64,000 nucleotides of DNA from Trichodelitschia bisporula (Eukaryota). This document shows positions 41,217 through 54,616 of this stretch, piece after piece. Where the stretch lies: contig ML996692.1 in NCBI GenBank assembly GCA_010356995.1, forward strand, positions 941,933-1,005,932. The letters run 5' to 3'. A program made the translations under genes and the position numbers. The notes beneath the pieces are model-generated. The model searched no databases. It had not been told where the DNA came from and worked only from the letters and a program-made list of their open reading frames with translations. Each line of letters begins with the position of its first letter. Position 1 is the first letter of the stretch.

Positions 41217-42925
41217 ATGCTGCAAACTGCCCCTAAACCCTCACCTCACGCCCCGCGCATCCTCACCATCGGCGCCGGCTCGCAAGGACACGCCTACGCC
41301 GGGCCAATCGCGAAGAACGGATGGGGGCACATCGCCTGTGTGGCCGAGCCGATCCCATACAAGCGGGCCGAGTTCGGGGGGCGGTTCATCTGGGGGCTGG
41401 AGGGGCGGGAGGCGCTGCCCTGGGAGCAATTCGTGGGGTGGGAAGAATGGCTCGCATATGAGAAAGAACGGCGGGGGCGCGTTGCGACTGGTGAGATCCG
41501 CGAGGGAGATCCAGAGTTTCGGGGGGTGGATGCGGTGTTTGTGTGTGTGCTGGATGAGATGCATGTGCGAGTTGTGAAGGCGGTGGCGCCGCTGGGACTA
41601 CATATTATGTGTGAGAAGCCGCTGGCGACGAGTTTGGAGGATTGTATTGACATCTTGGGGACGGTGACGAGAGAGTGGAATGTTCTGGGGAAGAAGAGCA
41701 TATTTGGGATTGGGCATGTGTTGCGCTACAGCCCGCAGAATGTGACGCTGAGGAGGCTGGTTAGAGAGGAGAGGGTGATTGGGGATGTGATTAGCATGGA
41801 ACATACTGAACCGGTCGGGTGGTGGCATATGGCCCACAGCTTCGTGCGGTAAGTTCACGTTCCCCTTGCGGGAGAATGGTAGCTGACAAGCAAAGAGGAA
41901 ACTGGCGTCGAGAAGACGTGACCGCACCGATACTACTCACGAAGTCTTGCCATGACATGGACTTCCTGCTTTGGCTCCTCTCTGCACCAACGGATCCTAG
42001 CAAAGGAGATCCGCCTCATATGCCCGCGCTCATCACCTCCACGGGTATGCTCACGCACTTCCGGAAATCACGCAAGCCACTTGCCGCCGGTCCGGCCACC
42101 AACTGCCTCTCATGTCCCATAGAGCAGAGTTGCATATATTCAGCCAAAAATGTCTACATCAAGCACCATTTTGACCAAAACGATCTGGAGTGGCCACTGA
42201 AGGTCGTGGTTCCAGAGATCGAAGACTTGTACAAAGAGAAGGGTAAGGATGCCGCAAAGGCACGGCTGCTTGAGGCATTGGCAGTAGACTACACGTCGGA
42301 CACTCCAGCCTCCGAGGTCAAGCAGCGCTCCTGGTACGGACGCTGTGTGTGGGAGTGCGACAACAACGTCTGTGACGACCAAACAGTAACCATATCCTGG
42401 GAAGATGACCCATTGCCAGAAGGGAGTTCTGCATTAAACGGTACTACCGAAGAGACAAATGGTTTCACCAAAGGTGATGCCGGAGGCCTGAACGGACGAG
42501 CCGCCAAAACTGCCATCTTCCACATGACAGCGCCAACCGAGAGCGTCTGCGAGCGAAGAGGACGAATCTATGGCACCGCAGGTGAAATAACATACGACTT
42601 CGACACCATCTTTGTCCACTCTTTCGCAACCGGCAAGACCGAGACCGTTGTTCCCGAGGGACGTGGAGGTGGCCACGGTGGAGGAGACGATGCTTTGGCA
42701 GAGAACTTCTGTAAGGCCGTGCAAGCGGTGCTGTCAGGCGAGATGGATGCAGAGGAATCGCAGAAGAGGTTCGTGGGATGCGGTATTGAGGAGATTGTTC
42801 GGCACCACATCGCTGTCTTCGCAGCTGAAAGAGCTCGGCGGAGGAGACTAGTGGTCGATTGGAACGAATTCTGGGAGTTGAATGTTGAGCCGCAATTGCG
42901 CAAGGTTGTTCTCGGGGCACCATGA
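41217..42925 (+). CDS. Gfo/Idh/MocA family NAD(P)-dependent oxidoreductase (StrI-like); exons 41217-41848, 41896-42925
   Basis: Rossmann motif IGAGSQG, CEKPLA, GHVLRYSP, HSFVRGNWR (across intron 41849-41895), TKSCHDMD, NCLSC, GHGGGD. Confidence 0.92.
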
Positions 42926-43062
42926 AGCCGTAGATGGTCCTGCAGCTGTATCAGTGAGCTTAGATATCGTGCCAATGGGATGAGCTTTCACAATACTCCT
43001 CGAGACGGCCAAACCTTCAGCCCGACCTAGCGCTGGTTCACCTGCAGCGAGATTCCCCCCCC

Positions 43063-43257
43063 TCAACCCAGACCTAAGCGGCTGCGTCTCCAATGTTGCA
43101 GAGTTTGCCCACTCAATTAATAATGGGGATACTCTCGGCCAACTTCACCATGAGGGTCATCGAGATGCCAAAGATGTAAAGCCTGTGTATCGCCATTATT
43201 AAAGGACTGGACAAACTGAACAACAGTTGAGACACAAGCGGCATAGGCATGAGTTGA
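43063..43257. repeat. Long imperfect inverted repeat (arms 43063-43132 / 43187-43257)
   Basis: Hand alignment: 54 of 71 positions complementary, 1 gap; core TTAATAATGGGGATAC / GTATCGCCATTATTAA. Confidence 0.9.
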
Positions 43258-43590
43258 TCTAACAGGACTGTGTTGTTAGTGGTGATGTCCTTCGATGAGG
43301 TACTTACACTATCGACCAAAGAGCAACACAACAGTAGAGCGAGATAACAGGCCGCTGCCGCAATCCAAGTTAGGCTATCACGAGTCAAGCCAGAAAGCAT
43401 CAAACTAGCCGGCAGGTTGGCCGCTCTACGCTTTGAATGGTTTAGTCAATTGTAAACGGCGGAGGCTCTTCGCTCTGAGGAGTCTCCTCTTCCGGAGACA
43501 GACTCCGCCATGTAAGGCCTGTTATAGACGCTCGCACGAGCATCTGCTCAGCTGCAGACTCTGCTTCCGGATATGGCAGCAACATCATCA

Positions 43591-43860
43591 ACGGCATCTT
43601 CAAGTACGTACGTATTGGGGTTCCGAATACCACAGGGCACACATCGTAAAGTCTTTTGATGGTATCAGTTATTGGCGGTCGGCTTGATGGTCGCTGGCTT
43701 GCCTCGAGATGGTGTAGCTCGGGCCGGGGCGACGGCGTATTATCTAGCTCAAGCCAGCCGCTCTCAAGCCAGCCGCCGTTGACTGATGCCATGAAAAGAC
43801 TCTACGAAGTGTGTCCTTTGGTAGTCGAGAACACGATACGTACGCACTTGAAGATGGCGT
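43591..43860. repeat. Ungapped 111-bp inverted repeat (arms 43591-43701 / 43750-43860)
   Basis: Hand alignment: 88 of 111 positions Watson-Crick complementary with no indels; 48-nt spacer that can itself partly pair. Confidence 0.95.
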
Positions 43861-43937
43861 GGGACGGCGTATTCTCTCGCTCTGCCGAGGTGGTGTGTCG
43901 CCCTTCGGTCGATAGCTGGCGTTTAGCGGATTAGAGA

Positions 43938-44037
43938 TGTTCGGAGATGGGACTGGCTCTTGCCCCATTGCATTATTAGTGATGATCTGTTCGGAGATGG
44001 GACTGGCTCTGGCCTCATTGTATTATTAATGATGATC
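43938..44037. repeat. 50-bp tandem duplication (2 copies, 4 substitutions)
   Basis: TGTTCGGAGATGGGACTGGCTCT(T/G)GCC(C/T)CATTG(C/T)ATTATTA(G/A)TGATGATC twice. Confidence 0.95.
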
Positions 44038-44114
44038 TCTAGTTCTAACGGTATTAGGCTCCTGCTGGGCAGTCACCTTTGACATGAAGAAATGCACCTT
44101 CCATGCGCTCTTGG

Positions 44115-44216
44115 AATGTCGCATCCATGGGAAATATTCGAGAAGCTTACGGTATGTCGGAGAGATAGGATCGCTCCGACGTAAGATTATCGAATAGTTC
44201 CCATGGATGAGGCATT
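44115..44216. ncRNA. Near-perfect 102-nt hairpin, pre-miRNA/milRNA-like
   Basis: 47 aligned stem positions: 41 Watson-Crick, 1 G:U, 5 single mismatches; one 5-nt bulge (44152-44156) and a 3-nt loop (44167-44169). The inverted repeat is certain; RNA function is inferred. Confidence 0.55.
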
Positions 44217-44800
44217 TTGTAGCCCTGAATGACTATATTTGATGACCAAGTTGAGAAGAGACCTCTCATCGAACAACCGCTCAAGAAAATCGATGTTTAT
44301 ATACACTGTTTGGGTCACATAATAGCAGGAAGTGCCGCCAGAGGTGGGGCTTTGAAGTCACGGTTACGGCATCGACGAGCCGTCTCTGAACAATCACGTT
44401 AGTATGGATCAGATGGTCTTCACGTACCTTCCAATGCGTACATATCTTCTAGAACTAGGGCTTAAGTAGAGCGCATCGAAGACGGGATCTCAGAGCGCCC
44501 AACTGACTTTGAGGTATGAACGTCGTTGAAATGCTGCACACACCGCGTCCGCCCCGCGTCCATTCGAACAGGCTAGCGCGGTAAGCTCTCATCCCGCCCA
44601 GCACCTAGCTCCGAACTATCTCCAGACCTCGGTGCAGATCGCATGAACGTGGGGAAAGCTTTCCCGCCCTCACAACAACACCACTTCCGTCATGATGCAC
44701 GGCTTAATAATACGTCCTCAGCACCTCATCGCAATCGAGAGCATAAAACCGACATCCCATCTCCAGCCCTAACACATTGTCCCACCTAACACCCGCAACC

Positions 44801-45930
44801 ATGCCCTCCGCCATCGTCGTCCGCAAAATCGACGGCAAGCCCGGCCAGGTCTACTACCCACTCGAGAAGGTCACCGTCGCGGCGCCCTCCCCGAAGTCCG
44901 ATGAAGTCGTCATCGCTATCCGCGCCGCTGCGCTTAACCACCGCGACCTGTTCATCCGCCAGCACCTGTACCCGGGGGTCTCATTCGGCGTCCCGCTGCT
45001 CGCGGATGGGAGCGGCGTGGTCGTGAGCACAGGCAGCGACCCCGCGGCCAAGGCCTGGCAGGGCAAGCGCGTAGTCATCAACCCGGGCTCGGGATGGGCG
45101 TCCGACCCGTACGGGCCTGAAGACCCGGCCGGGTACAAGATTCTCGGGGGGACGAAGTTTAACCCCGTGGGCACGCTCGCGGAGTATGCGGTTATTGCGG
45201 CGAGCGAGGTTGAGGAGGCGCCGGCGCATTTGTCTGATGGCGAGGCTGCGGCTGTTGTCCTGACCGGATTGACTGCGTGGCGGGCTGTGTTTAGCAAGAG
45301 TGGGAATGCGGAGCCGGGGCGAAATATTTTGGTTACGGGGATTGGAGGTGGTGTTGCGATTATGGCGCTGCTGTTGGCACATGCGGCTGGGGTGCGGGTG
45401 TTTGTCACGAGTGGCAGTGCGGAGAAGCTGGAGAAAGCGAAGGAGCTGGGTGCGGCGGGTGGCGTGAACTACAAGGACAAGGACTGGGAGAAGCAGTTGC
45501 AGGCGCTGCTGCCTAAGGACCGGCCGTACCTGGATGCTGTCGTTGACGGTGCGGGAGGTGATATTGTCCCGAAGTCGACAAGACTTCTCAAGGTGTGTTT
45601 TTTCCTCTTATGTGGTGATGAAGGCTAACTGTCCAGGCCGGCGGCGTCATTGTCACCTACGGTATGACCGTTGGGCCACAGATCGTGTACCCCATGGGCA
45701 CGGTGCTGAAGAATATCGACCTGAAGGGGTCGACAATGGGCTCGCGGAAGGAGTTTGCCGATATGATTAAGTTCGTACAGGAGAAGCAGCTACGGCCGGT
45801 TATCTCGCGCAGCGTGCGCGGCCTTGACATTGAGGCGATTGACGGGTTGTTTGAAGACATGAAGAAGGGGACACAGTTTGGGAAGCTGGTTGTGGAAGTA
45901 TCTAGCGACGGTCAGGCGAGTAAGTTGTAG
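44801..45930 (+). CDS. Medium-chain dehydrogenase/reductase (zinc-type ADH-like / quinone reductase family) with PTS1; exons 44801-45592, 45637-45930
   Basis: AAALNHRDLF, DGSGVV, LTGLTAWRA, ILVTGIGGGVA, GSTMGS, QFGKLVV; ends in -SKL. Intron 45593-45636 with GCTAAC. Confidence 0.92.
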
Positions 45931-46991
45931 ACCGCCTTCGATCCAAATGTATTTTAACTTCGGAATAAAGCAGCTGGCTCGGGACCCTGATGTACTTAGG
46001 GCGGTGATAAATCCCTAGCCAAAGTGTGAGGCTCCGTAGCCTTGACAACAATCTTTGCCACGGTCTTCTTCTAATGTGGAACTTGGAGCGGTGACGAGAC
46101 TGACATCAGTCTCTCTGGCTCGTCCAGCATTCATGTTGGGGCGGTACCCTGGCGTGCATGGACGAGGACGCCGTGAAGACGGGTCTTCAAATTAGACCGA
46201 CTTGGTCAGACTTATTATTTGGACGACGAACATACCCAGGGTGCTCAGACTTATAGAGCAGATGCACCCGTCGGTTCAAAGGACATTGATGAGTGCGAGC
46301 ACGAGGAGTGCACCCAAGTGGTCAGCCTCGTCTTGTCCCAAGTGACGTCAGGATTGGCATCAGGGGTATCGTCTCAAACCACGAACGTCAACCGTCAACC
46401 ATCACCACGCCATCCTCATCTTACACTTCAACACTAACTGTCTACAGTGTACTGAGGAAAGAATTACGTTTTGGAGACCCTTATCATCACCTTAGCGAAG
46501 CCAAAAACCCAGGGCGGAATAGCCGCACCTCAAGCCAGTCCCACCACCCTATTCCGTCCATTATCACCAAGAGAGGCCTTCACAGCACAAAGAAGTCTTC
46601 ACTGGCTGCCCTGTGGGCGGCCTTGAAGCCTTGAAGCCCAGAAAACCGGGCAAACCGATTTTACTGATAACCTAAAGCAAGCTTTCGGTGAACACTGTGA
46701 ACACACAGGTAAACCCAATGGGTGGAAGAATAGGAAAAAATCCAATGGGTGGTAAGGGTACAAGAAAACAGAATCCCCCACAAACTCCTGCAGATCCATC
46801 CGCCGCACAGGGGCCACTTTCCATCTCGCTGCACGACTGCGCTCGCGAGGCACAACCAACTCCCTCGCCCTTACTTTCTAAAAACATCACGCTCGCGTCA
46901 ACCTCACCCCCCATCTTCAACCCCCACACACGTCAACCCTCCCCGTCCGCCAGCTCGCGCCCCTTCCCCTGAACACCCGCCACATCGCCAT

Positions 46992-54368: not shown

Positions 54369-54616
54369 CATGCCCACGCCCCCACAACCCTACAATCAAC
54401 CAGGACCAGGTATCTCCCGAACGCCCCCCTCCCCTCCCCCCCCCCCCCCCCCCCGGACTCGGCCCCGCGCCCGCAAACTTCATATTCNNNNNNNNNNCAT
54501 GCCCACGCCCCCACAACCCTACAATCAACCAGGACCAGGTATCTCCCAAACACTACCGTCCCCAGTTCCCCTCTCCCCTAAGCGGACTCGGCCCCGCGCC
54601 CGCAAACTTCATATTC
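54369..54616. other. Scaffold gap (10 N, 54488-54497) flanked by a 119-bp duplicated overlap
   Basis: 54369-54487 and 54498-54616 are the same sequence except that the left copy degrades into poly-C in the middle. Confidence 0.92.

Follow-up and report, generated by a model that had tools for sequence, protein, structure and literature searches.

A stable hairpin within a transcribed cluster of unrelated hairpins in Trichodelitschia bisporula, a candidate microRNA-like precursor

Introduction

Is a long imperfect hairpin in a fungal intergenic gap the precursor of small RNAs, or a scar of DNA rearrangement that happens to be transcribed? The question is raised by a hairpin, here called H3, in a 64,000-nt stretch of the Trichodelitschia bisporula genome. 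This stretch, the window, lies on one of the 44 contigs of a 25.8-Mb assembly.

Fungal microRNA-like loci are poorly defined, and those studied best are short units transcribed by polymerase III. The rules proposed for fungal mi/milRNA loci ask that more than 80% of the small-RNA reads come from the hairpin strand, that abundance reach at least 0.5 reads per million and that the duplex be free of secondary structure (PMC9757828). In the same source, fewer than half of 1727 published fungal loci met basic read-profile rules. If truly processed, a spliced RNA made by polymerase II and carrying several long hairpins of unrelated sequence would be a cleaner analogue of the primary microRNA clusters of plants and animals. 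If neutral, it would serve as a warning that transcribed hairpins can build up without function even when they are long, very stable and marked by odd mismatch patterns. Our analysis shows that the hairpin is real, that it was partly misdescribed in a preliminary description made from the sequence alone, and that it lies within a more interesting, transcribed hairpin cluster.

Structure of H3

H3 (44115-44216, minus strand) consists of a 37-bp lower stem, a 5-nt bulge, a 10-bp upper stem and a 3-nt loop; its sequence and coordinates agree with the preliminary description. The stem opposes 47 positions (44115-44151 with 44180-44216, and 44157-44166 with 44170-44179), the bulge occupying 44152-44156 and the loop 44167-44169. 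Watson-Crick pairs make up 41 of the 47, with five G.A oppositions and a single G.T at 44119/44212. The G.A oppositions fall at exactly the five sites claimed for them: 44121/44210, 44134/44197, 44142/44189, 44145/44186 and 44163/44173. On the minus strand the same positions read as five U.C mismatches and one A.C. The reported pairing of 42 of 47 positions is thus correct for the plus strand, where the G.T wobble counts, and becomes 41 of 47 on the minus strand. That all mismatches are transversions relative to a perfect palindrome proved true of only five of the six, the G.T being of the transition type.

Predicted folding energies were -54.2 kcal/mol on the plus strand (z -8.80) and -48.5 kcal/mol on the minus strand (z -9.82), and on neither strand was any of 200 shuffles as stable. 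H3 is a real hairpin with a stability far beyond chance. Its lower stem can be divided into many bulge-free duplexes of 19-24 nt, each with 1-3 non-Watson-Crick positions. Nine of these begin with U on both strands, an enumeration that describes anatomy and is not evidence. Fungal milRNAs typically begin with U, as do 31 of 34 in Penicillium chrysogenum (PMC4425646).

The hairpin cluster and its genomic context

H1, H2 and H3, which are longer than any other inverted repeat in the window, all lie in a single 1.9-kb gap between two plus-strand genes; the preliminary description had overlooked H1 and H2. On the left, a GFO/IDH/MocA oxidoreductase gene (41218-42925, start codon placed by eye) ends beside the cluster. 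On the right lies a gene of the zinc-type alcohol dehydrogenase family (44801-45930), which is head-to-head with the minus-strand RNA described below. The nearest homologs of the neighbouring genes are 73-76% identical. Named homologs of a nearby dioxygenase, from Venturia, Verruconis and Patellaria, are 69-73% identical, which suggests a Dothideomycete host.

The hairpins are packed into 1.15 kb at spacings of 250-330 nt. H1 (43063-43257, minus strand) has a stem of about 75 bp with 58 Watson-Crick pairs; its plus-strand reading contains six A.C and no G.T oppositions, equivalent to G.U wobbles on the minus strand, where folding is also better (-89.8 versus -75.1 kcal/mol). H2 (43591-43860) is longer, with a stem of about 111-122 bp and 94 Watson-Crick pairs, and its plus-strand reading holds 11 G.T and four A.C oppositions. 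Here it is the plus strand that folds better (-168.8 versus -145.9 kcal/mol; z -17.1 versus -15.2).

The segment 43309-43414 is a third arm with two complementary partners: 43673-43750, which lies inside H2, and 43846-43915, which lies outside it. The latter segment, the partner of 43309-43370, contains a short direct copy (43863-43882) of 43731-43750, so that the layout of H2 is nested, with an inverted copy and a short direct copy 132 nt apart. To judge from this arrangement, the third arm may provide an alternative or outer stem and would be the trace of a repeated inverted duplication. Between H2 and H3 lies a further 50-nt tandem duplication (43938-44037), its copies 92% identical. Pairwise comparison of H1, H2 and H3 revealed no significant similarity, which implies at least three separate events kept in one place.

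Transcription and splicing

Five sequencing runs, none of small RNA, contain this stretch in whole or in part, and four of them were compared with it. Assembled RNA contigs from runs X3 and X4, which represent one sample and are unstranded, skip the plus-strand introns of both neighbouring genes and therefore derive from RNA. On either side of the cluster they contain two gaps, one on each side, that read CT..AC on the plus strand, i.e., GT..AG on the minus strand, each with a branch-point motif near its end. The first is a 56-nt intron at 44386-44441, with the motif 18 nt before its end, spliced in both X3 and X4. The second, a canonical 51-nt intron at 42946-42996 within the GFO 3' flank, is seen in one X4 contig only, at depth 3.5 and with 30 nt on its short side.

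The preliminary description would have given up H3 as a precursor if no precursor transcript existed. Such a transcript is present: record 3 of X3 crosses the minus-strand junction 44442/44385 and continues through all of H3 down to 43999. Record 2 of X3 extends without a break from GFO coding sequence as far as 43832. Since the contigs are unstranded, only junction-spanning molecules are proven to be of the minus strand. The two introns would delimit a 1389-nt exon (42997-44385, minus strand) containing all the hairpins, which we infer from contigs none of which spans it singly; among the listed pieces X3 has none for 43833-43998 and X4 none for 43814-44243, gaps that prove nothing either way. 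The simplest reading is one minus-strand RNA, arranged head-to-head with the dehydrogenase gene, which carries the hairpins in its 1389-nt exon and overlaps the GFO 3' flank at its end.

At 42916-43026, X4 contains an unspliced form at depth 7.7 beside the spliced form at 3.5. As a separate observation, the spliced minus-strand RNA and the 3' end of the GFO gene overlap in this segment, and the sense and antisense RNAs may pair.

The spliced RNA looks non-coding. Its longest ATG-initiated frame encodes 116 aa, compared with a shuffle median of 79 and a 95th percentile of 125, and this frame had no Pfam match, no other match in the genome and, as weak evidence, no homolog among 140 longer candidates. 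The listed pieces of X1, X3 and X4 contain no sequence differences among them. Run X5, from another organism, yielded two pieces, one of 219 nt that is identical (depth 2.8) and one of 36 nt that matches with six differences, and was not used as evidence.

Mismatch patterns

In the preliminary description, the transversion bias of H3 was the reason for proposing selection on an RNA duplex of Dicer-substrate size. In a simple simulation, the probability that at least five of six mismatches fall in one transversion class was 1.4e-4 with the transition fraction set to 0.58 and 7.8e-4 with it set to 0.41, in a test of uniformity that was post hoc and concerned one of three hairpins. G.A accounts for all five transversion mismatches of H3, versus 7 of 27 in H1 and H2 together (p 0.004) and 4 of 20 in the controls. 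G.A uniformity is thus peculiar to H3. It fits selection for pyrimidine-pyrimidine mismatches; it could also reflect G-to-T damage on the non-template strand, where 8-oxoguanine, which reportedly causes such changes, would have to act with a presumed strand bias.

The mutation-type argument, from transversions to selection on RNA, did not survive comparison with other inverted repeats. H1, H2 and H3 together have 22 transitions and 32 transversions, loop-proximal positions included, versus 22 and 20 in other decayed inverted repeats of the genome (three of five such repeats, the other two being a simple repeat and one that aligned poorly). Against this control, neither the cluster as a whole (Fisher p 0.30) nor H3 alone (1:5, p 0.19) is different. 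Still in favour of the proposed Dicer-size duplex are the spliced transcript through H3, the room for bulge-free duplexes of 19-24 nt and the presence of Dicer and Argonaute domains in the genome. Relative to direct repeats and paralogues, the cluster does have a transversion excess (22:32 versus 189:136, p 0.018), the control consisting of 13 background repeat pairs, coding paralogues included.

Strand-specific wobbles point in different directions: the transition-type mismatches of H1 are all six G.U on the minus strand (6 versus 0, p 0.03), and those of H2 lean to the plus strand (11 G.T versus 4 A.C, p 0.12). Mismatches are spaced at random in all three stems, with no even spacing seen. 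One 30-nt unit is triplicated. Its two copies paired with each other in H2 have eight differences, and the other two comparisons give nine and ten; hence there is no sign of arm co-evolution. Decay by RIP was considered and rejected, as only 3 of the 19 transition-type mismatches examined lie in a CpA context and the RIP indices match those of the window. Overall, the evidence for selection on RNA pairing is mixed.

Rarity and origin of the cluster

Local inverted repeats were scored in 80 stretches of 10 kb each, placed at round rather than random coordinates, 20 of which adjoin the window. The cluster itself holds four local inverted repeats within 1.15 kb, with scores of 61, 30, 29.5 and 26.5. 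No local inverted repeat scoring 20 or more was found in the first 400 kb or in the rest of the window outside the cluster, and the second 400 kb contained one of at least 26 and five of at least 20. Strong local inverted repeats thus number four in the cluster versus one in about 860 kb sampled elsewhere.

A DNA search of the genome returned no second copy of the cluster; few candidates were scored, and weak homology could therefore have escaped. Four 20-30-nt probes covering part of the arms had no second genomic site at up to three mismatches, and the 800 kb of sampled genome sequence contained no copy. The same search and probes, with the same coverage, gave no extended homology of the arms to a target gene in the organism's own genome. 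By eye, the flanks of the hairpins show no target-site duplication. A dispersed family of hairpins of about 110 nt, 74-89% alike and unrelated to the cluster, occurs at L063:1804-1914 and L013:1320-1418, with shorter matches in L063, L089 and L074; its members are probably small transposon relics. At another locus (L091:3970-4413, in G000 C4), inverted 82-nt arms, 82% complementary, flank a 281-nt spacer that includes a tandem duplication of 57 nt. Another hairpin, a weaker one (L091:4805-5008), lies 400 nt away. The pair is possibly another hairpin cluster or element.

In the window, Rfam gave no match at the gathering score and a tRNA scan found none. Three weak matches to Rfam miRNA models, at 17-25 bits against cut-offs of 79-230, were discarded as structure-driven and far below cut-off. 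None of 11 short frames over the arms had a Pfam match at cut-off. A 52-aa frame over H1 returned eight matches with E-values up to 0.001, all of which were rejected as summed chance matches; two that were aligned proved short and many times repeated, in unrelated TPR and Ig-like repeat proteins.

A metagenome scan with both core arms of H3 returned a single locus, L048, which does not align to the window and was set aside as chance or an assembly artefact. The locus itself (L048:1-124), which ends an AT-rich metagenome contig, is a perfect palindrome of 124 nt. It lies next to bacterial-looking frames resembling sugar-nucleotide synthesis genes and is probably artefactual.

Discussion

We consider the locus a good, though unproven, candidate for a multi-hairpin microRNA-like precursor. 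Our preferred reading, with a probability of about 0.5, is that the hairpins arose by local inverted duplication, are carried on a spliced polymerase II RNA and are cut by Dicer to yield small RNAs. One intergenic gap would have acquired three inverted duplications of unrelated sequence, one of which was repeated, most likely by replication template switching; the arms themselves are evident, and the mechanism is the conjectural part. The nested layout of H2 would then follow, because a template switch inside an older hairpin leaves such a pattern. A minus-strand non-coding RNA would have its start in or close to the 5' end of the dehydrogenase gene, cross H3 and probably also H2 and H1, and reach the GFO 3' flank; the two junctions and the coverage of H3 are direct observations, and the single continuous transcript is deduced from them. 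That this RNA is spliced points to polymerase II. Its stems are predicted to fold into long imperfect duplexes, and one of two Dicers might cut H3 into one milRNA-like duplex and H1 and H2 into several hairpin siRNAs, which would be loaded into Argonaute. These small RNAs might repress partly complementary mRNAs or overlapping transcripts of the neighbouring genes; at the sensitivity available, no target of the arms was found. The genome encodes two Dicer-dimer domains and three Piwi (Argonaute) domains, one of the Piwi matches containing stops, possibly introns. Their presence is necessary for Dicer-dependent production and is not proof of it.

We regard as doubtful the more ambitious proposal of a polycistronic primary microRNA in the style of plants and animals, in which a single spliced transcript of polymerase II, oriented divergently to a metabolic gene, would deliver distinct functional small RNAs from three unrelated hairpins. 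The U.C mismatches of H3 would then have been selected, and the third arm at 43309-43414 would let H2 fold in two ways according to the transcribed strand.

In several respects H3 resembles described fungal mi/milRNA loci: it is intergenic, has a transcribed precursor, no second copy found and no Rfam match, occurs in a genome with Dicer and Argonaute, and forms an unbranched stem with room for a 19-24-nt duplex (PMC9757828, PMC4425646). Known fungal precursors are short, however, at 43-89 nt in P. chrysogenum (PMC4425646) with an inter-duplex distance usually below 20 nt, whereas H1 spans 195 and H2 270 nt. A further difference is the presence of three unrelated hairpins in one gap. Neither "cluster" nor "polycistron" appears in the main text of PMC9757828, and its supplementary file 4 contains no match to three U-spelled arm motifs. 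Nor did the literature searched, mostly outside subscription journals, yield a fungal spliced precursor with several unrelated hairpins.

In Neurospora crassa, 92% of milRNAs come from the polymerase III type, and poly(A) reads for milR-5 to -9 suggest polymerase II, so precursors of that kind exist in fungi (PMC3547838). Both milR-1 to -4 and milR-5 to -9 are intergenic hairpin loci, as here. The four major Neurospora loci, in contrast to the spliced RNA of T. bisporula, are polymerase III units with a T run just downstream, pri-milR-1 being about 170 nt long (PMC3547838). On the minus strand no T run follows H3; on the plus strand four consecutive T occupy 44215-44218. We therefore rejected a short unspliced polymerase III unit of the Neurospora type, given the splicing of the minus-strand RNA and the missing T run.

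H1 and H2 invite a different comparison. The Drosophila hairpin RNAs Nmy and Tmy (PMC10292708) are also long imperfect inverted repeats in a non-coding transcript and candidate sources of siRNAs, but they match their target genes over long stretches; within the available sensitivity, the arms studied here had no match of this kind. By analogy, the function would resemble that of fungal milRNA loci for H3 and of Drosophila hpRNAs for H1 and H2. As for origin, template switching can create whole stems in a single event and has produced new miRNAs in primates, where stems were sometimes altered by a second event, in an architecture like the nested one of H2 (bioRxiv 10.1101/2023.04.19.537475). 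The primate cases are backed by ancestral reconstruction, whereas the origin proposed here is deduced without an outgroup.

A serious alternative, though less likely than our preferred reading, is that the stems are neutral fold-back scars. One hairpin would have promoted further template switches and duplications, the arms would decay independently, the RNA would be an incidental divergent transcript of the dehydrogenase promoter, and the uniformity of the G.A mismatches would be due to chance or to G-to-T damage on the non-template strand. Such a history fits the star-like divergence of the triplicated unit, the random mismatch spacing, a mutation spectrum resembling that of other decayed inverted repeats, the opposite strand preferences of H1 and H2, the tandem duplication in the same gap and the failure to find a partner in the genome. 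It is harder to reconcile with three non-homologous stems lying between two same-strand introns in a genome where such repeats are rare, and with the transversion excess over direct repeats and paralogues, although that control includes coding sequence. We think it unlikely that the hairpins act in cis, H1 and H2 serving as Dicer cleavage or stability elements in a long plus-strand GFO 3' UTR while the minus-strand RNA is antisense to GFO and to the dehydrogenase 5' end. A precedent is Fgmil-2 in the 3' UTR of Fusarium graminearum bioH1, a hairpin directly downstream of its gene, as H1 and H2 are behind GFO, potentially on its mRNA; it is, however, one hairpin on a sense mRNA, whereas here the proven spliced RNA is antisense and three stems are present (PMC6804420). 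The unbroken X3 contig leading from the GFO coding region to 43832, the unspliced X4 form alongside the spliced one and the plus-strand folding preference of H2 are all in line with cis control. Against it, unstranded contigs merge overlapping RNAs and so demonstrate no plus-strand UTR, a UTR of about 900 nt would be needed, and H3, being continuous with a minus-strand junction, is left unexplained.

Two further explanations carry little weight with us. Decayed non-autonomous DNA transposons (MITEs or fold-back elements) inserted side by side would account for the size and the terminal inverted arms, and hairpins of about 110 nt do form a dispersed family in this genome (L063, L013). We hold this to be very improbable, given that no other copy was found, that no hairpin end bears a target-site duplication and that, within 800 kb, the cluster has no similarity to that family. 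A structural non-coding RNA such as telomerase RNA, with its long helices as scaffolds, would suit the transcript, which is spliced and non-coding, measures 1.4-2 kb and has long helices. It is scarcely credible here: the telomere-template motif is absent from the minus strand of 42000-46000, and Rfam, with no match at the gathering score, offered weak ones only to three miRNA-precursor models. A genome-wide model search located telomerase RNA nowhere, which weighs neither way.

Additional observations

Two features outside the cluster deserve mention. The dehydrogenase gene ends in the codons for S-K-L followed by a stop (45919-45930, plus strand; region 45919-45993), which we take to be a peroxisomal targeting signal type 1. 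Run X3 reveals an intron at 45920-45970 whose removal deletes the S-K-L codons, the retained form being unseen among the contigs listed; splicing may therefore switch the enzyme between peroxisome and cytosol. Splicing-switched targeting of this kind is already known in fungi. Elsewhere in the window, 54369-54616 contains two direct 119-nt copies, 129 apart and identical at both ends; in the first, a long C run takes the place of the middle, perhaps as an assembly or sequencing artefact.
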